Below, piece by piece: positions 13,695 through 23,978 of a stretch of DNA of 49,468 nucleotides. Position 1 is the first letter of the stretch, and every line of letters starts with the position of its first letter. The stretch lies in the sequence record SRR20825019_1320. One strand, 5' to 3'. The notes under the pieces were generated by a model. That model searched no databases. It had not been told where the DNA came from and saw nothing but the letters and a program-made list of their open reading frames with translations. A program made the translations under genes and the position numbers.

Positions 13695-13958
13695 ATGTCA
13701 GAAAAACAAAAAAAGGCTACCGCATATTGGAGAGAGAATTTAAAGTATTTGACGATTTTACTCCTCATATGGTTCTTGGTCTCCTACGGGGCCGGCATTC
13801 TCTTTAAGGATGCGTTGGATTCCATCCGCATTGGAGGCTTTAAACTGGGATTTTGGTTTGCCCAGCAAGGAGCTATCTATGTATTTGTCATTCTCATTTT
13901 TGTATACGTTCGGCTTATGAACAAGTTGGACAAAAAATACGGCTACAACGAGGATTAA
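13695..13958 (+). CDS. DUF4212 small membrane partner of a solute:sodium symporter
   Basis: AYWRENL...GFKLGFWFAQQGAIYVF; immediately upstream of an SSS gene. Confidence 0.88.
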   Translation: MSEKQKKATAYWRENLKYLTILLLIWFLVSYGAGILFKDALDSIRIGGFKLGFWFAQQGAIYVFVILIFVYVRLMNKLDKKYGYNED

Positions 13959-13978
13959 CCAATCATTAAAACTTTATT

Positions 13979-15694
13979 ATGAGTGATGTTCAAATTTGGA
14001 CCTATGCATTGGTCGCACTATCCTTTGGTCTGTATATAGGAATTGCCATTTGGTCCCGGGCTGGTTCCACAAAAGAATTCTACGTGGCCGGTGGAGGAGT
14101 GTCTCCTTTGGCCAACGGAATGGCAACCGCAGCCGATTGGATGTCGGCGGCCTCCTTTATCTCCATGGCAGGAATCATATCCTTTGCAGGGTATGACGGA
14201 GCTGTGTATTTAATGGGATGGACTGGTGGCTACGTGCTTTTGGCCCTTTTATTGGCACCATACCTAAGAAAGTTCGGAAAGTTTACCGTGCCCGATTTTA
14301 TCGGGGAACGTTACTATTCCAAAACGGCACGTGTTGTTGCAGTTATCTGTGCGCTTATTGTTTCCTTTACCTATGTGGCGGGGCAAATGCGAGGAGTTGG
14401 AATCGTATTTTCTAGATACCTCGAGGTTGATATAAACACAGGCGTCGTTATCGGAATGGTGATTGTATTGTTCTATGCCGTTCTCGGGGGGATGAAGGGA
14501 ATTACCTATACCCAAGTGGCCCAATACTGCGTATTGATATTTGCCTTTATGGTGCCCGCTATATTTATTTCAATCCAAATGACGGGTAACCCTGTTCCCC
14601 AGTTAGGTTTTGGGGATACCTTATCCGATGGGTCCGGGACTTATCTTTTGGATAAACTGGATGGTCTTTCCGAAGAATTGGGTTTTGCGGCATATACGGA
14701 TGGTAGCAAAAGTACCGTAGATGTGTTTGCAATAACACTTGCTTTAATGGTGGGTACGGCGGGACTGCCACATGTGATTGTACGATTTTTTACCGTAAAA
14801 CGGGTCCGAGATGCCAGAAAATCGGCGGGATTGGCCCTCTTGTTCATTGCAATACTCTACACAACGGCACCAGCAGTGGCCGTTTTTGCCAGAACTAATC
14901 TTATTGAAACGGTAAGTGGAAAAGAGTATGATCAAATGCCAGAATGGTTCAGTAGGTGGGAAAAAACAGGGTTGATTGCGCACGAGGATAAAAACGGTGA
15001 CGGAAAAATACAGTACGTGGCATCTCCAGAGGTAAACGAACTTACGGTAGATCGCGACATCATGGTATTGGCCAACCCGGAGATTGCCGACCTTCCCGCT
15101 TGGGTCATTGGCTTGATTGCCGCAGGAGGACTTGCCGCGGCACTGTCAACCGCTGCAGGGTTATTGCTAGTGATTTCTTCCTCGGTTTCCCATGATTTGA
15201 TAAAGAACGTCCTTAAACCTGATCTTTCGGAAAAAGCGGAGCTATGGGCGGCCCGACTTTCGGCAGCTGTGGCGGTTGTAGTAGCTGGTTACTTTGGCAT
15301 AAATCCGCCCGGATTTGTGGCTGCAGTAGTCGCTTTGGCCTTTGGTTTAGCTGCGGCATCGTTTTTCCCTGCCATTATTCTAGGGATTTTTTATAAAAAG
15401 ATGAACAGTAAAGGTGCCGTCTCCGGAATGATTGTTGGTCTTTGCTTAATGCTTTTCTATATGCTCAAATTCAAGTTTGGAATATTTGATGGAGGTCAAG
15501 AAGCAGTGGCTGGCCTACAGGAAAATTGGTGGTTCGGAGTTTCACCAGAAGGGTTCGGAAGTATCGCTATGATTGTCAATTTCGTGGTGGCCATCATTGT
15601 TAACACGTTTACGGCTGATCCTCCGGAGGAAGTACAGGAAATTGTAGAAAATATTCGGGTTCCAAGTGGGGCGGGAGAGGCAATTGAACATTAG
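13979..15694 (+). CDS. actP: Sodium:solute symporter, ActP-like (probable acetate/monocarboxylate permease)
   Basis: NGMATAADWMSAASF, GKFTVPDF, GGMKGITYTQVAQY, GTAGLPHV; adjacent to acs. Confidence 0.85.
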   Translation: MSDVQIWTYALVALSFGLYIGIAIWSRAGSTKEFYVAGGGVSPLANGMATAADWMSAASFISMAGIISFAGYDGAVYLMGWTGGYVLLALLLAPYLRKFGKFTVPDFIGERYYSKTARVVAVICALIVSFTYVAGQMRGVGIVFSRYLEVDINTGVVIGMVIVLFYAVLGGMKGITYTQVAQYCVLIFAFMVPAIFISIQMTGNPVPQLGFGDTLSDGSGTYLLDKLDGLSEELGFAAYTDGSKSTVDVFAITLALMVGTAGLPHVIVRFFTVKRVRDARKSAGLALLFIAILYTTAPAVAVFARTNLIETVSGKEYDQMPEWFSRWEKTGLIAHEDKNGDGKIQYVASPEVNELTVDRDIMVLANPEIADLPAWVIGLIAAGGLAAALSTAAGLLLVISSSVSHDLIKNVLKPDLSEKAELWAARLSAAVAVVVAGYFGINPPGFVAAVVALAFGLAAASFFPAIILGIFYKKMNSKGAVSGMIVGLCLMLFYMLKFKFGIFDGGQEAVAGLQENWWFGVSPEGFGSIAMIVNFVVAIIVNTFTADPPEEVQEIVENIRVPSGAGEAIEH

Positions 15695-15758
15695 AATAGC
15701 TGTGAAATCACTCCGTTTTTCCTTATTTTTAAAGCAGCTTAAAATTTAATTGAACATA

Positions 15759-17666
15759 ATGAGTAACTACCACATTAAACACTTGGAGGAGTATTTTCAG
15801 GTGTATCGAAAATCCGTAAGGAACCCTGAAGGATTTTGGGAAGAAGTAGCAGAAGAACACTTTCATTGGCGAAAAAAATGGGATTCAGTTTTAGAATGGG
15901 ACTTTACAAAACCAGAGGTTAGCTGGTTCAAAGGGGCCAAATTGAACATTACCGAGAACTGTATCGACCGCCACCTCCGGATAAGGGGAGATAAAACGGC
16001 TATTCTTTTTGAACCGAACGACCCTAACGAGGAAGCAGAACATATAACTTACAGCCAACTTCACGAGCGTGTTTGCAAATATGCGAATGTGTTGAAGGAG
16101 CAAGGTGTTGAAAAGGGGGATAGGGTAGTTATTTATTTACCAATGATTCCTGATTTGGCTATCTCTCTTTTGGCCTGTGCTCGTATTGGGGCCATTCATT
16201 CTGTAGTTTTTGCAGGGTTTTCATCAACCGCATTAGCAACAAGAATCAACGATTGTGGCGCTAAAATGGTACTTACTTCAGATGGTTCTTACCGAGGAAA
16301 AAAGGTTATTGATCTAAAAGCAATCGTGGATGAAGCTTTGGAAAGTTGCCCTGATGTGAAAACTGTGTTGGTTTCTAAACGAACCGGAGGGGAAGTAAAC
16401 ATGAAAGGCGGTAGGGATGTTTGGGTTCAACCCCTATTGGATAAAGCATATTCTGATTGCGATCCGGAAATAATGGATGCTGAAGACCCATTGTTTATTC
16501 TTTATACCTCTGGCTCTACAGGTAGGCCCAAAGGAATGGTTCACACCACGGGAGGTTATATGGTTTATACTGCCTACACCTTTAAAAATGTATTCCAATA
16601 TCGCGAAGAGGATGTGTATTGGTGTACTGCTGATATAGGGTGGATTACTGGACACTCTTATATTGTATATGGGCCATTGGCCAACGGGGCCACAACGGTA
16701 ATGTTTGAAGGTGTTCCGTCTTACCCGGACTTTGGACGCTTTTGGGATGTGGTACAAAAACACAAAGTAACGCAGTTCTACACGGCACCTACGGCAATAC
16801 GGGCATTGGCCAAAGAGAATCTGGATTTTGTGACCAATCACGATCTTTCCAGCCTTAAAGTTCTGGGTACTGTGGGAGAGCCGATCAATGAAGAAGCATG
16901 GCATTGGTACAATGATCACGTAGGTGATAAAAAATGCCCCATTGTGGATACTTGGTGGCAAACAGAGACCGGAGGTATCCTTATTTCACCAATACCTTTC
17001 TCCACACCAACGAAGCCGACGTATGCTACTTTGCCCATGCCAGGTATTCAACCGGCACTGATGGATGAAAATGGTAAGGAAATCAAAGGAAACCAAGTTG
17101 ATGGAAGGCTTTGCATCAAGTATCCATGGCCATCCATTGCAAGAACCATCTGGGGTAATCACCAGCGATATAAGGACACCTATTTTTCTGCTTTTGAAGG
17201 GAAATATTTTACCGGTGATGGAGCACTCAGGGATGAGGTGGGCTACTATCGAATCACCGGTAGGGTTGATGATGTTATCATCGTGTCCGGTCATAATTTA
17301 GGAACGGCACCCATCGAAGATGCCATAAACGAGCATCCAGCCGTGGCCGAATCCGCCATTGTTGGTTTCCCACACGATATCAAAGGAAATGCATTGTACG
17401 GTTATATTATTCTGAAGGAAACAGGGGAAGATCGTAATCGTGATAACCTCAAAAAGGAAATCAATCAATTGATTACCGAACATATTGGACCCATTGCCAA
17501 GCTGGATAAAATCCAGTTTGTGGAAGGATTGCCAAAAACACGAAGCGGTAAGATCATGAGGAGAATCCTTAGAAAGATAGCTTCCAAGGATACAGGCAAC
17601 TTGGGGGACACTTCAACTTTATTGAATCCGGAAGTAGTGGAATCGATAATGAAGGAGAGTCTTTAA
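15759..17666 (+). CDS. acs: Acetyl-CoA synthetase (AMP-forming)
   Basis: YTSGSTGRPKG, WCTADIGWITGH, DTWWQTETG, LPKTRSGKIMRR. Confidence 0.97.
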   Translation: MSNYHIKHLEEYFQVYRKSVRNPEGFWEEVAEEHFHWRKKWDSVLEWDFTKPEVSWFKGAKLNITENCIDRHLRIRGDKTAILFEPNDPNEEAEHITYSQLHERVCKYANVLKEQGVEKGDRVVIYLPMIPDLAISLLACARIGAIHSVVFAGFSSTALATRINDCGAKMVLTSDGSYRGKKVIDLKAIVDEALESCPDVKTVLVSKRTGGEVNMKGGRDVWVQPLLDKAYSDCDPEIMDAEDPLFILYTSGSTGRPKGMVHTTGGYMVYTAYTFKNVFQYREEDVYWCTADIGWITGHSYIVYGPLANGATTVMFEGVPSYPDFGRFWDVVQKHKVTQFYTAPTAIRALAKENLDFVTNHDLSSLKVLGTVGEPINEEAWHWYNDHVGDKKCPIVDTWWQTETGGILISPIPFSTPTKPTYATLPMPGIQPALMDENGKEIKGNQVDGRLCIKYPWPSIARTIWGNHQRYKDTYFSAFEGKYFTGDGALRDEVGYYRITGRVDDVIIVSGHNLGTAPIEDAINEHPAVAESAIVGFPHDIKGNALYGYIILKETGEDRNRDNLKKEINQLITEHIGPIAKLDKIQFVEGLPKTRSGKIMRRILRKIASKDTGNLGDTSTLLNPEVVESIMKESL

Positions 17667-17690
17667 AAAGGCTTGTTCAATAAAATGAAG

Positions 17691-17718
17691 AAGGACCTCT
17701 TTATCTTAGGAGGTCCTT
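17691..17718. terminator. Hairpin terminator between acs and the exonuclease gene
   Basis: AAGGACCTC...GAGGTCCTT stem spanning the exonuclease stop codon. Confidence 0.55.
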
Positions 17719-18351
17719 TATTTTTTGAGGTTTTAGTTTTTCAATGGTTCTCAAAAAAGCTATAGCTGTAATAAAGGCGTCGCCTAAAGCTGTATGTCTA
17801 TCTTTTCTGGAGATACTGAATTTTTTGGCAAGGTCGTCCAAGGAGTATCTTTCCTTTTTTTGGACCACAGAAGAAATCAAAAGGGTTCTAATGTATAGGG
17901 ATTCAGTGTCCAATGTCTTGTTTTTGAGTTTGGGCAATCCGTTCCTTTTGAGCGCGGCATTGATCATATTGACATCGAACATCACATGGTGTCCCACCAG
18001 TATATAACTTTTGACATATACCAAAAATTGCTTCAGGGCTTCAAGTTCGGAAATAGTGTTCTTCTTACTTTTCTTAAGGATTCCATGGATTTCAGCACTT
18101 TCGGAATCATAGTGTTCCTGTTGGATATAAACTTCAAAAGTGTCCTTGACCACAATATTGTTGTCCTTAAGCTTTAGGGCACCTATACAGAGCATTCGGT
18201 CCTTTGTGAAACTAAAACCGGTGGTCTCCGTATCCAACACTACAAAAATATTTTCATGGATATCCTCTGGAAGCTTTTCTTTGAAATGCTCCTCATAGGC
18301 CCGCCAGAAATCGGGCAGTTCCAGCGGTTTCTTTTTGGAGAACGGCCACAT
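17701..18351 (-). CDS. DEDDh 3'-5' exonuclease (DnaQ/PolC-like)
   Basis: VVLDTETTG, VGHHVMFD, RHTALGDA; start overlaps the stop of the DUF294 gene. Confidence 0.9.
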   Translation of the reverse strand: MWPFSKKKPLELPDFWRAYEEHFKEKLPEDIHENIFVVLDTETTGFSFTKDRMLCIGALKLKDNNIVVKDTFEVYIQQEHYDSESAEIHGILKKSKKNTISELEALKQFLVYVKSYILVGHHVMFDVNMINAALKRNGLPKLKNKTLDTESLYIRTLLISSVVQKKERYSLDDLAKKFSISRKDRHTALGDAFITAIAFLRTIEKLKPQKIKDLLR

Positions 18352-20270
18352 TAGCGTAAAAGGTTTTTTACTTGGAACCTCACCTCTATCAAGGATTGAA
18401 TTTCCTTGACAGTCTTGAAGGTTCTCTTCAGTTTGATTTTTTCTTCTTTGTTCAATTTATCCAAAGCAATATATCGGCCCGAATCGTTATGCAACAGCCC
18501 CTGTCTCGTTCTAAATTTCAACAATGCTTTACTGGCATAGGAGCAGGCGAGATAAAGCTCTTTATTATTGGGCTCCAATTCTGCGAGTTTTTCATAACGT
18601 TCGGCTGTATTGTTGATAGATTTGATGGAGTGGGATAAAATCAATACCCGTGCAGCATCTATAATGGGCATTAGGGCACGAAGTTTTAAATCGAAAAAAT
18701 CCTTGTGCTCACCATCTTGCTCTACAAGAAAATCCCTAAAAAAACCAGAAGGAGAAGGGTTTTGCAGTGCACCGCTTGCCAAATGGGTAAAAAATAGGGG
18801 ATATCCCTGTACACTGTCAAAAATACTTTGTGAGAGTTCATCGGCCAATGCCTTGTCACCAAAAGTAACATTGTAATCAAAAAATATGGATAATAAAAGT
18901 ATTTCATCTGGCCCAGGGTTATGTATCCAATGTCTTGTTACATCCTTCCATTCACTAAGGCTATGGCACCACGAAAGGTTGGAAGCCATCATATCCGCTG
19001 GACAATATTCAAAACCAATGGTATTTAGCATTTTGGAAATCCGTTCGCCCAATTTTAAGAAATAGGACCGGGTAACTTCTAAATTCTCCTTTGGTACATC
19101 TTCAAAAATAATGGCATTGTCTTGGTCAGTGTTCAATAATTGTTCGCCACGACCTTGGCTGCCCATGCTCAACCAAGTAAATTTTACAGGGGGTTCTTTT
19201 TCCATTTTCGACAATGCGATTTTTACCACCTGCTTCGTGGAGGCATCATTGAGTTCGGAAATAATTTTGGAAACTAGTCCCAACGGAATGTTCTGTTCCA
19301 AATAACCTTGAAGCAGATTCATGATTCCATGTCGAATGCTGCGTAGTCTTTTTGCTTTGGAAGCCCTTTTTATGGCGCGTAAAAGTACTGCGGGGTTGTT
19401 CCCGACAGCTACCATTATATCATGTTTGGATAAGATTCCTGCCACTTTTGAGTCCGTAGTCCCATCCTCTGTGAGCACTAAATGACTGATATCGCTCTTC
19501 ATCATGGCCATTTGCGATTGCGCCAAAGTAAGTCCTTTGGGGTAGGTGATAATGGGAGATGACATTATAGATTGGGCGGATGCAGTAATGGGATATAATC
19601 CTGTTGCCACTTTTTTCCGGATATCCTTGTCCGTTATGATACCCACGGGAAGGTCTTCCCGAACCACCAACATACAACCTACATTGTGCTTGGTCATTTT
19701 GTTGGCAATGGTCTTTACTTGTGTGCCCTCCTTGCAAGTGATGAGCTTGGTTGAATATTTAATGGGCTGCAAATCCAGCATTTTGTCGCTGGAATATTGA
19801 TTGGAATCGATGTTGTCCCCATAGAGCTTGCCACGATGTTTAATGGAATAGGGGTTTCCCGTATTGGAAGCAAAGCTTTCTATCAAAAAATTCCCGATAC
19901 GTTTGTTTTCGAGAGCCAGTGGCTTGAAATCTTTGATGGGAATGGCGTAGAGGATGGTTTCTTCATAGGCCTTCGCTTCCAATTTATAACTTTCATTGGC
20001 CAGCAAGGGGCGCAATCCGAACACATCACCTTCATCACAAATATCCAATATCTGGCTTGAACCTGATTTGGAAAGTGCCACGGCACCTTTGTTCACCACA
20101 TAAAAATTGTCGTGCGGACTTTCACCTTGGGAGAAAACCACCGTGTTGGTCTCTTTGTGGATTATGGTGACCTCAATGGACAACTGCTCCAGCTGTTTGG
20201 ATTCCATGGCATTGAAGGGGGGGTAGCTTTTTAGAAAATCGGCAATACGCTCGGATATGGTGTTTTTCAT
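18351..20270 (-). CDS. cNMP-binding + CBS pair + DUF294 nucleotidyltransferase protein
   Basis: N-terminal cNMP-like fold (YVVNKGAV..EGDVFG), CBS pair (GIITDKDIR; GILSKHDI), pol-beta NTase motif GSQGRGEQ....DQDNA, C-terminal DUF294_C helical region. Confidence 0.9.
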   Translation of the reverse strand: MKNTISERIADFLKSYPPFNAMESKQLEQLSIEVTIIHKETNTVVFSQGESPHDNFYVVNKGAVALSKSGSSQILDICDEGDVFGLRPLLANESYKLEAKAYEETILYAIPIKDFKPLALENKRIGNFLIESFASNTGNPYSIKHRGKLYGDNIDSNQYSSDKMLDLQPIKYSTKLITCKEGTQVKTIANKMTKHNVGCMLVVREDLPVGIITDKDIRKKVATGLYPITASAQSIMSSPIITYPKGLTLAQSQMAMMKSDISHLVLTEDGTTDSKVAGILSKHDIMVAVGNNPAVLLRAIKRASKAKRLRSIRHGIMNLLQGYLEQNIPLGLVSKIISELNDASTKQVVKIALSKMEKEPPVKFTWLSMGSQGRGEQLLNTDQDNAIIFEDVPKENLEVTRSYFLKLGERISKMLNTIGFEYCPADMMASNLSWCHSLSEWKDVTRHWIHNPGPDEILLLSIFFDYNVTFGDKALADELSQSIFDSVQGYPLFFTHLASGALQNPSPSGFFRDFLVEQDGEHKDFFDLKLRALMPIIDAARVLILSHSIKSINNTAERYEKLAELEPNNKELYLACSYASKALLKFRTRQGLLHNDSGRYIALDKLNKEEKIKLKRTFKTVKEIQSLIEVRFQVKNLLR

Positions 20271-20458
20271 ACTACTAATTTAAGCCTTGGTTTCATTTTC
20301 AAGAAATTATTGCTCCATAACCTTTTGATGGATAATTGTCTCATGTATACTGTATTCCTCAAAGTAATCACCAACTTTTTACCTTGCCCATAAACACCTA
20401 TCTTTGCCCATCGGAAAAACAAGAATCCAATTTTCTAATAATCTATTAATCATATACA

Positions 20459-21391
20459 ATGCAAGACGGAATCTACGCAAAGTTCAATACTTCCAAAGGT
20501 GAAATATTGGTGAAGCTTACGCATGATAAAACACCTGGAACGGTTGGCAACTTTGTTGCACTGGCAGAAGGGAATATGGAGAACAGTGCTAAGCCACAAG
20601 GAAAACCGTATTATGATGGACTAAAGTTCCACAGGGTAATTGCCGATTTTATGGTTCAGGGCGGATGTCCTTCCGGAACTGGAACCGGAGACCCAGGATA
20701 CAAGTTTGATGATGAATTCCATCCAGATTTGGTGCATGATGGACCTGGAGTACTATCCATGGCCAACGCAGGGCCCGGTACCAATGGGAGCCAATTTTTT
20801 ATCACTCATGTAGCCACCCCATGGTTGGACAATAAGCATACTGTGTTCGGTCGTGTTGAAGAAGGTCAGGATGTTGTGGATGCCATTTCTCAAGGAGATT
20901 CGATTGAAACCTTGGAAATTGTAAGGGTAGGTGAAGAGGCCCAAAAATGGAACGCTATTGAGGCTTTCCGTACATTTGAAGGTGCAAGGGAAAAGCGTAT
21001 CGCAGAGCAAAAGGCTGCCGCTGAGGCTGAAATGGAAAAGTTGGCCGCCGGTTTTGATAAGACCGATAGTGGGCTTCGTTATAAGATTATTCAAAAAGGT
21101 AGCGGTGCCAAAGCAGAAAAAGGTAAAACCGTATCCGTGCATTATGAAGGTGCTTTGACGAATGGTCAAGTATTCGATTCATCCTATAAAAGAAAGCAAC
21201 CCATAGATTTTTCATTGGGCATTGGACAAGTAATTCCCGGTTGGGATGAAGGTATCAGTTTGCTAAAAGTTGGTGACAAGGCCCGTTTTGTGATACCATC
21301 GCACTTAGCCTATGGAAGTACCGGAGCAGGCGGAGTTATTCCACCCAACGCAACATTGATTTTTGATGTAGAATTGATGAACGTGAAATAA
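20459..21391 (+). CDS. Peptidyl-prolyl isomerase, cyclophilin + FKBP fusion
   Basis: [31 protein letters not shown] (cyclophilin); VHYEG...FDSS...VIPGWDEG...[13 protein letters not shown] (FKBP). Confidence 0.95.
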
Positions 21392-23435: not shown

Positions 23436-23978
23436 CTAAAGTTCTTTGGTCAAAATATACATGGGCTTCTCTTCTGGTTTTACATGGGGAAGTGTTACTT
23501 CGCTCTCCCTTTTGATGATAAAGCCATTTTTTTGATAAAACTGTACCGGTTTGCCTTTTTGCATGGCATCCAGCCAAATGACTTTTTTGTTCAGTGCCCT
23601 GGCCGTTTCTTCAATAAACTGAATCAATTGTTTGCCAATGCCTTTGCCTGAATGCTCTTTCAAAAGATAGATTTTTTCGGCTTTTAATGCCTCGGTATCC
23701 GATATTTCATCAATGCCACAGTCTTTTAGCAATTTAAGGACGCCAACCGTTTCTTCTCCCAAGTTGACCAGAAAATTCAAAACATTGGGGTCTTGTAGTT
23801 CACGTTCTACAACATCAGACGTAAAACCATTTGAAATGTATGGTGTTGGGTCTTCATTTTCCCATAAATGGAGGTAATTCTCGCGATAGGATTTAATGCC
23901 AATGGTCAAGTAGGTTGTATGGTTGTCGTGGTTGACAGGAACTAATGTTACGGTATTGTCCAAAACATCACAGTTCAT
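23436..23978 (-). CDS. GNAT-family N-acetyltransferase
   Basis: KIYLLKEHSGKGIGKQL motif A; FYQKNGF. Confidence 0.88.
   Translation of the reverse strand: MNCDVLDNTVTLVPVNHDNHTTYLTIGIKSYRENYLHLWENEDPTPYISNGFTSDVVERELQDPNVLNFLVNLGEETVGVLKLLKDCGIDEISDTEALKAEKIYLLKEHSGKGIGKQLIQFIEETARALNKKVIWLDAMQKGKPVQFYQKNGFIIKRESEVTLPHVKPEEKPMYILTKEL

Follow-up and report, generated by a model that had tools for sequence, protein, structure and literature searches.

A sensor nucleotidyltransferase and its DEDDh partner beside short-chain acid uptake and activation genes of a flavobacterium: a candidate writer/eraser pair

Introduction

What does a nucleotidyltransferase with two sensory modules do together with a small exonuclease-like protein, and why are the two encoded beside genes for taking up and activating a short-chain acid? 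The question is raised by sequence record SRR20825019_1320, a stretch of 49,468 nucleotides from a host described as a marine flavobacterium, which we call the window. On its minus strand lie the overlapping genes of NT, a sensor nucleotidyltransferase of 639 aa (18351-20270), and EXO, a stand-alone protein of the DEDDh exonuclease fold of 216 aa (17701-18351), and an operon for a two-subunit sodium/solute symporter and acetyl-CoA synthetase (Acs) converges on them. The original prediction was of an energy-sensing writer and a phosphodiesterase eraser acting on the products of that operon. Our answer is that NT and EXO may indeed be a two-subunit regulatory enzyme that tunes the uptake and/or activation of small monocarboxylates, as writer and eraser on the uptake system, a reading that we hold tentatively.

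The locus itself is a real and ordinary member of a known, named and biochemically uncharacterised module, and this copy has no added feature. Our literature search found no biochemical study of the module, as had been supposed, and the idea of protein nucleotidylation is not new, since it is already a published speculation in two Pseudomonas papers. What is new here is predicted: that EXO docks on the N-terminal domain of NT, that the domain in question, of the cNMP-binding (cyclic nucleoside monophosphate) type, has a non-canonical cassette, and that NT and the symporter subunit DUF4212 co-occur at the level of the genome where their genes are unlinked.

Results

Conservation and predicted binding of the pair

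The stop codon of NT and the start codon of EXO overlap by one base (TAATG), and the translational coupling that had been noted here proved to be one instance of a widely conserved pairing. We examined two sets of loci. Set A was drawn from 151 genomes of the window's phylum, Bacteroidota, in which 46 strong DUF294 places were found in 40 genomes and 40 places were taken (left out were two places in G004, G023:C2, G117:C12, G037:C1 and the window's own twin). Set B, which is not a random sample, comprised the 80 best-scoring among 599 genome hits to one distant subgroup represented by a 10-sequence alignment, and covered Acidobacteriota, Nitrospirota, Thermodesulfobacteriota, Chloroflexota and other phyla. 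EXO lay directly downstream of NT on the same strand in 98 of the 120 loci (31/40 in set A, 67/80 in set B); the gap was 30 nt or less in 86 of these 98 and 44 pairs overlapped, with open reading frame (ORF) starts assigned mechanically. Because EXO adjoins NT so often, and because the nearest genome has just five RNase_T-family matches in 4.4 Mb, EXO being one of them, the pairing is far beyond chance. Unbiased clustering of the neighbours within 6 kb of NT likewise put EXO first (88 loci), followed by sodium/solute symporters (SSS, 39), Acs (38) and a sigma-54 response regulator (31). A downstream EXO accompanied 97 of 127 NT genes with the cNMP-like domain and one of five without it, the latter being too few to weigh, and one of them cut by a contig end.

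Would the two proteins bind each other? The original prediction had called for a multimer structure prediction, and such a calculation for NT and EXO supports binding: EXO was docked on the N-terminal domain of NT with an ipSAE (interaction prediction score from aligned errors) of 0.66 (0.66, 0.69 and 0.65 in separate runs), against 0.34 for the best control. The same mark was attained by 58 of 80 solved complexes and by 2 of 110 mismatched pairs, a calibration that is only rough because our own alignments were used. At least 94% of contacts were common to the runs and the partner's pLDDT (predicted local distance difference test) was at least 79. The predicted interface comprises NT residues 3-9, 11, 31-40, 61, 104 and 106, and would lay an edge strand of the cNMP-like domain (31-40, plus 3-11) on the EXO edge strand 64-69 and on the helix that bears H186 and D191.

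Some departures from the simple pair were also seen. Eleven further NT genes without an EXO of their own are upstream copies in tandem NT-NT-EXO arrays, which occur in set B (L055, L056, L060, L085, L088, L094, L111 and L117); a sigma-54 response regulator stands between the two NT genes in some of them, and the catalytic aspartates are lost in the upstream copies of L088 and L111. In two loci of one genus (L028:10860-12308 and L030:7755-9173) a symporter of the sodium:neurotransmitter family (SNF), another sodium-coupled transporter, lies directly downstream of NT in place of EXO, and L032 has the same arrangement as judged by position only. One related genus has two NT-EXO pairs per genome (L018, L022, L024 and L025 versus L034, L035, L036, L038 and L039): a window-like copy (~910 bits) without acs nearby and a distant copy (~550 bits), for which acs is no farther than 10 kb away in L034, L036 and L039, whereas L035 and L038 have none in that range. 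The window's genome has a single pair, which is of the first kind yet lies beside acs.

The nucleotidyltransferase

In Pfam, NT matches cNMP_binding, two CBS domains, DUF294 (147.9 bits) and DUF294_C, an architecture also found in its 120 best database relatives. Its family comprises 1543 clusters at 50% identity with E<=1e-30, and its best database relatives are 90% identical and named Flagellimonas, Allomuricauda or Muricauda. The catalytic motif is intact, as had been read from the sequence (GSQGRGEQLLNTDQD, to which D465 adds the third acid), although its spacing had been given as E-x4-DxD and is E-x5-DxD, with five residues between E376 and D382. Across 122 NT relatives, residues G370, S371, R374, E376, D382, D384 and D465 are either invariant or shared by at least 90% of the sequences. 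Of the 132 NT genes in the examined loci, 126 retain the acidic triad, among them 96 of the 98 with a downstream EXO.

What kind of nucleotidyltransferase is it? By sequence, the DUF294 part matched no solved structure, and a search of the NT profile against PDB sequences gave full-length columns dominated by cNMP and CBS matches and no alignment to GlnE. The answer came from the AlphaFold2 model, which has a mean pLDDT of 91.8 for the whole protein, with a disordered linker at residues 136-160, and of 96.5 for residues 296-639 (DUF294 plus DUF294_C; 18354-19385, minus strand) modelled alone. We compared the latter model with 48,161 representative PDB chains, and a second time by Foldseek. The top VIA match was the N-terminal domain of GlnE (1v4a; Z 26.8, 310 residues aligned, root-mean-square deviation [rmsd] 3.0), followed by the adenylylation domain of GlnE (3k7d; Z 25.5, 302 residues, rmsd 3.1) and the AMPylation domain of DrrA (6yx5_B; Z 25.3, 306 residues, rmsd 4.2). 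The next full-length nucleotidyltransferase was ANT(4') at Z 9.0, aminoglycoside nucleotidyltransferases (ANT enzymes) and Hailong HalB being weak matches to the NT core (Z 6.7-9.0), and HEPN domains matched the last 140 residues (Z 8-10). In Foldseek the same four GlnE/DrrA chains were the sole matches at E<=1e-3, and RNA uridylyltransferases reached a probability of 0.12-0.33 with rmsd above 23. The model thus supports assigning the catalytic half of NT to the fold of the protein-AMPylating enzymes, with a helical HEPN-like domain behind the core. This bears out the kinship of DUF294 with protein-modifying enzymes of the GlnD/GlnE type that had been supposed, and agrees with the 2013 survey, which grouped DUF294_C with GlnD/GlnE and DrrA.

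The sensory half was a more qualified case. Residues 1-135 (19866-20270, minus strand), the predicted docking site of EXO, have the cNMP-binding fold that had been assigned to them (PF00027, 54.6 bits); the assignment does not extend to sensing of a cyclic nucleotide. Leu86 and Tyr95 stand where the cassette of PKA RII-alpha has the Glu and Arg that contact the cyclic nucleotide in PKA, so that a canonical cAMP/cGMP sensor is unlikely from the sequence. Of 122 relatives, 91 share the Tyr at position 95 and 4 have Arg there; the residue at position 86 is hydrophobic across the family. The CBS pair (residues 165-295; 19386-19778, minus strand) matches PF00571 in two stretches (62.6 bits), and among solved structures it is closest to the CBS protein 2ef7. 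As a side observation, the CBS part of the NT profile also matches AcuB (PDB entry 9s4w), a CBS protein encoded in acuABC systems of the Bacillus type, which control Acs acetylation; AcuB would be a second case of a CBS sensor beside the control of Acs.

The DEDDh protein

EXO is a minimal DEDDh domain (PF00929, RNase_T; 95.9 bits, residues 37-199) with a 36-residue N-terminal extension. Its catalytic residues are present as had been read (D40, E42, D126, H186 and D191), and among 86 NT-linked relatives each of them is either invariant or shared by 90% or more. The nearest solved sequences are the proofreading exonuclease domains of PolC and epsilon, Cas2-DEDDh and DinG, and EXO falls below every curated cut-off tried: PRK09145 (122.6 versus 189), dnaQ_proteo (77.9 versus 222.7), RNase T (28.1 versus 246.2) and oligoribonuclease (24.5 versus 106). 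The C-terminal tail of DnaQ, the epsilon subunit of Pol III, binds the polymerase. We rejected DnaQ as an identity for EXO on the dnaQ_proteo score and because the catalytic domain reaches residue 199 of 216, which leaves no long C-terminal tail. EXO thus has the DEDDh fold and catalytic residues in common with the DnaQ and PolC proofreading domains, RNase T and oligoribonuclease, and differs from them in its N-terminal extension and in being always encoded after NT.

We also looked for fused forms. Of 642 'longer' relatives of EXO, 120 were listed and PF03445 was absent from each of these, and the 836-aa protein P0278, considered as an NT-EXO fusion, was rejected since it has no kinship to NT outside its EXO part. 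Separately, many proteins of ~700-740 aa (P0279-P0397; L067:7380-9596 (-)) were found to join an EXO-like domain to an N-terminal PAS or other sensor region; the one at L067 is encoded divergently to an NT gene on a Nitrospira contig.

Linkage to uptake and activation genes

In the window, the plus-strand operon that converges on NT and EXO begins with DUF4212, the small subunit of the symporter (13695-13958, 87 aa; PF13937 120.3 bits, TIGR03647 120.9 versus a cut-off of 26.05), continues with the large subunit (13979-15694, 571 aa) and ends with acs (15750-17666, 638 aa with a TTG start as listed). The last matches TIGR02188 at 967.6 bits versus 724.95 and has ACAS_N, AMP-binding and AMP-binding_C domains. 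Pfam and TIGRFAM matches confirm all five genes, which lie at the positions that had been given for them. The label 'ActP' that the large subunit had been given was not upheld: TIGR02711 scores 163.9 against a cut-off of 1099.25 and NF006903 200.9 against 750, and the partner is DUF4212, not DUF485 (YjcH). By its sequence it belongs to the VC_2705 family (TIGR03648, 869.2 bits versus 320.75), whose symporters are always accompanied by DUF4212. Because DUF4212 plus VC_2705-type members are tied to the use of D,L-lactate and D-alanine by mutant fitness data (Price et al. 2016 preprint), acetate is a presumed substrate of the window's symporter on the sole basis of the adjacent acs.

A recurrent neighbourhood, as had been claimed, was found across phyla: Acs or an SSS symporter lay within 10 kb of NT in 54 of the 120 loci (8/40 in set A and 46/80 in set B), and both types of small subunit, DUF4212 and DUF485, were found with NT-linked symporters. 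Does the association persist where the genes are apart? DUF4212 scored above the cut-off in 49 of the 151 genomes searched for set A. It was present in 28 of the 40 genomes with NT and not found in 12; where NT was not found, DUF4212 was present in 21 genomes, 19 of them in one family, and not found in 90. In another family, by our tally, DUF4212 was present in 16 of 17 genomes with NT and in none of 14 without, and in one genus of that family the same 8 of 18 genomes contained both. The two genes were mostly unlinked, being adjacent in 4 of the 28 genomes (in G091 they lie at 1.07 Mb and 1.80 Mb). Because relatives are not independent, this co-occurrence is a pattern and not a statistic, and the symporter can clearly exist without NT, and NT without the symporter.

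One variant locus bears on the partner of NT. In L020:7229-13012 (-) an operon encodes a calcineurin-like phosphoesterase, an sCache_2-PAS-PAS-CBS-DUF294 protein of 966 aa, DUF485 and an SSS symporter, with neither a cNMP-like domain nor a DEDDh gene. The replacement of one phosphoesterase type by another supports a generic phosphodiesterase role for the NT partner.

Surroundings of the locus

The genes flanking the locus encode DnaN, an ABC-2 transporter with an auxiliary protein, PhoH, PurC, a cyclophilin-FKBP isomerase and peroxiredoxins; because these are housekeeping genes, the locus is chromosomal and not mobile DNA. Between the convergent operons lies a terminator-like hairpin (17690-17719) with a 12-bp stem and a T-run on the plus strand, a match to the consensus only, which overlaps the 3' end of the EXO gene. 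Upstream of NT, a divergent intergenic region of 188 bp (20271-20458) presumably contains the promoter of NT-EXO. A sigma-70 scan, whose consensus does not cover Bacteroidota promoters, gave 11 sites versus a shuffle mean of 14.5 and none above the shuffles. No regulator gene was seen among the ORFs annotated at 7-30 kb of the window.

Contigs of RNA libraries from three marine metatranscriptomes of one study are identical to DUF4212 (13708-13947), the end of the symporter gene and acs (15776-17670), hinting that close relatives express the DUF4212-symporter-acs unit (13708-17670) in the sea. No contig from these three runs covered NT or EXO, and such contigs cannot show absence or level. Two neighbours are of separate interest. 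The gene divergent from NT (20459-21391, plus strand) encodes a 310-aa protein that fuses cyclophilin-type (Pro_isomerase, 150.9 bits) and FKBP-type (FKBP_C, 123.2 bits) domains. Three kb from the locus, a small GNAT acetyltransferase of 180 aa is encoded at 23436-23978 (minus strand), and small GNATs acetylate Acs in some bacteria.

Discussion

How might such a pair work? In the mechanism that we favour, the CBS pair and the non-canonical cNMP-like domain would report metabolic state to NT, which, as an enzyme of the GlnE/GlnD/DrrA type, would transfer a nucleotide or a short nucleotide chain onto a hydroxyl of a target protein; it is the GlnE/DrrA-type fold that suggests a protein hydroxyl as acceptor. 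EXO, seated on the N-terminal domain of NT, would hydrolyse the phosphodiester and release a 5'-nucleoside monophosphate (5'-NMP), a step that we propose because the DEDDh partner is conserved, coupled and probably bound. As we reason, a DEDDh site would meet in a Tyr-O-P-O5'-nucleoside bond the 5'-NMP leaving group that it also meets at the 3' end of a nucleic acid. The preferred target would be the sodium-coupled symporter system for substrates of the acetate, pyruvate, propionate and lactate type, here DUF4212 and the VC_2705-type permease, with Acs as the second candidate; the modification would be inhibitory and EXO an activator. A more specific version seems to us possible but rather doubtful: NT and EXO would be a bifunctional switch like GlnD or GlnE that gates the sodium-coupled monocarboxylate symporter, and perhaps Acs, by adenylate charge, with the DEDDh protein co-opted as a protein de-nucleotidylylase that may trim short nucleotide chains on Tyr or Thr.

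Three known systems give these steps a precedent in part. In GlnE and GlnD the removing activity resides in the same polypeptide, in a second nucleotidyltransferase-like domain and in an HD domain, respectively, and writer and eraser would be held together in the same way by an NT-EXO complex; the opposing activities of one regulated enzyme are the logic in common. NT also has a G-x-G-R-x-E...D-x-D type motif with a third acid in common with these enzymes, and the fold of both GlnE domains (Z 25.5-26.8) at a sequence identity of 12-17%. It differs in that Pfam reports neither a second nucleotidyltransferase-like domain nor an HD domain in it, the candidate remover being a separate DEDDh protein, in its CBS and cNMP-like sensors, and in that no link to glutamine synthetase or PII was seen. 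DrrA (SidM) is a protein-Tyr AMPylator with a separate and unrelated eraser, the de-AMPylase SidD. Its likeness to NT, over 306 residues, is one of fold only: DrrA is secreted and acts as an effector on the Rab GTPases of the host, whereas NT would be cytoplasmic and metabolically gated. MntA-HepT (MNT-HEPN; 7ae2, 8xdj) sets a precedent for short AMP chains on protein Tyr, and combines a pol-beta nucleotidyltransferase with a HEPN-type helical domain as NT does (DUF294_C). There HEPN is a separate toxin, whereas in NT it is fused and is listed as non-catalytic (2013 survey), and no toxin-antitoxin context was seen.

The nearest described counterparts are PP_0354/PP_0353 of Pseudomonas putida (alloputida) KT2440, PA3233/PA3232 of P. 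aeruginosa and Pflu5625 of P. fluorescens, which share the two-gene operon of a cNMP-like, 2 CBS and nucleotidyltransferase protein followed by an RNase_T-type exonuclease. These were compared by description; to the distant 'EQT' subgroup NT is ~28-30% identical. The Pseudomonas module is likewise linked to acetate-type transporter and acs genes (PA3232-PA3235), and nucleotidylation was proposed there, but it is driven by MxtR/ErdR (CrbS/R) and lies beside a DUF485-ActP transporter or near glcB, whereas the window's copy is flavobacterial and accompanies DUF4212 and a VC_2705-family symporter. In P. putida KT2440, pp_0354-pp_0353 is one operon bound by ErdR (Henriquez et al. 2022) and is among the genes most dependent on MxtR/ErdR (September 2026 preprint); in P. 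aeruginosa, PA3232-PA3235 are up ~16-fold on propionate (Dolan et al. 2022).

What do the mutants say? One result that had been named in advance as a refutation, mutants without an acetate phenotype, is on record for P. putida: deletion of either gene gives no defect on 20 mM acetate, though phenotypes on pyruvate and propionate, and reported ones on low acetate, exist. Growth on pyruvate is impaired by deletion of pp_0353 (EXO), as it is by deletion of actP-I, and not by deletion of pp_0354 (NT) (Henriquez et al. 2022), and the later study likewise found deletions of PP_0353, yjcH and actP-I impaired on this substrate (September 2026 preprint). Fitness data of others place pp_0353 with actP-I at 5 mM acetate (Henriquez et al. 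2022). Because loss of EXO resembles loss of the transporter on pyruvate while loss of NT is silent, an inhibitory writer and an activating eraser on the symporter are suggested. In Shewanella and P. stutzeri, the Price et al. 2016 preprint moreover finds cofitness between DUF4212 transporters and a neighbouring gene labelled 'COG2905 (RNase T domain protein)'; judging from the locus-tag order, this gene may be the exonuclease. A protein modification 'similar to ... uridylation of PII' was proposed, and protein chemistry called for, in the September 2026 preprint.

Several observations weigh against the mechanism that we favour. To our knowledge, no DEDDh enzyme acts on a protein-nucleotide adduct, and among solved proteins EXO is closest to DNA proofreading domains. 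The literature found reports neither a nucleotidylated protein nor nucleoside triphosphate turnover or hydrolysis by members of the module. The docking score expresses the model's own confidence. An adjacent EXO is missing from 9 of 40 loci in set A and 13 of 80 in set B, in which a hidden Markov model of EXO found no hidden exonuclease; linkage to Acs or SSS within 10 kb holds in just 8 of the 40 Bacteroidota loci, and DUF4212 without NT (21 genomes) and NT without DUF4212 (12 genomes) both occur. The genetics come entirely from Proteobacteria and not from this flavobacterium, and within them the pflu5625 mutant of P. fluorescens had no phenotype, while neither pp_0353 nor pp_0354 deletion altered growth on 20 mM acetate or succinate (Henriquez et al. 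2022). On propionate, finally, deletions of PP_0353 and PP_0354 were impaired and those of yjcH and actP-I were not (September 2026 preprint). Because of these propionate phenotypes a simple scheme in which NT inhibits ActP and EXO reverses it is incomplete; they suggest either a second target, for which Acs is the obvious candidate, or a need for cycling.

Which other explanations compete? The one that survives best, although we consider it unlikely, is that the pair acts on RNA: NT would tail a specific mRNA, sRNA or tRNA of the uptake or activation genes and EXO would trim it, so that expression and not protein activity is controlled. The complete nucleic-acid-type DEDDh site of EXO and its nearest solved sequences (the PolC and epsilon exonuclease domains, Cas2-DEDDh and DinG) agree with this, the antagonistic genetics fit it equally well, and mRNA degradation has been offered as speculation (Henriquez et al. 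2022). It has to contend with an NT core that matches protein AMPylators at Z 25-27 over ~300 residues and RNA uridylyltransferases hardly at all (the low Foldseek probabilities given above), with the lack of any RNA-binding domain reported by Pfam, and with the calcineurin-like phosphoesterase that takes the place of EXO at one locus.

Could the chemistry be right and the target instead be Acs or a related acyl-CoA ligase, with the AMP that Acs releases feeding back through the CBS pair? We think this improbable. It draws on the presence of acs within 10 kb in 41 of the 120 loci (5/40 and 36/80) and its adjacency here, on the propionate result (PP_0353 and PP_0354 needed, actP-I and yjcH not), on the requirement for AcsA during growth of P. 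aeruginosa on propionate (Dolan et al. 2022) and on acetylation, by which Acs is already known to be reversibly modified (cited in the September 2026 preprint). Yet acsA-I is essential on acetate in P. putida (Henriquez et al. 2022; September 2026 preprint) while neither deletion affects growth on 20 mM acetate, and the EXO deletion phenocopies transporter mutants on pyruvate; cofitness with DUF4212 transporters (Price et al. 2016 preprint) and the genome-wide co-occurrence of NT with DUF4212 in one family likewise point to the transporter.

To a third explanation, a nucleotide-signal or small-molecule cycle, we give about as little credence as to Acs. In it NT would make a linear oligonucleotide or a nucleotidylated metabolite that acts on the transporter or on regulators, and EXO would degrade it. 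Other enzymes of the pol-beta fold do nucleotidylate small molecules or make oligonucleotides, ANT and HalB being the weak matches in question, a DEDDh enzyme or a calcineurin-like phosphoesterase would be a natural degrader, and a cNMP-like domain without the usual cNMP contacts could be the receptor of the product. Against it, the entire 344-residue module is GlnE/DrrA-like, far above the ANT and HalB matches, and the neighbourhoods hold no recurrent candidate receptor except NT itself. That the pair has no joint function, EXO being a housekeeping DNA or RNA exonuclease and a chance neighbour of an unrelated sensor, is close to refuted: its likeness to proofreading domains and the mild mutant phenotypes stand against adjacency in 98 of 120 loci across phyla with gaps mostly of 30 nt or less, four other RNase_T-family matches in the nearest genome, scores below the cut-offs of the dnaQ, RNase T and oligoribonuclease models, the predicted NT-EXO binding and the single operon in P. 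putida.

We conclude that the module, whose copy in this flavobacterium is an ordinary one, stands, in many phyla, where acetate, pyruvate and propionate enter metabolism. If NT and EXO are writer and eraser, they would bring to light a new class of eraser and a further, new level at which short-chain acid uptake is controlled. If, in addition, the switch depends on a DEDDh de-nucleotidylylase, EXO would be the first DEDDh enzyme to act on a protein adduct, and the symporter the first solute transporter controlled by nucleotidylylation.

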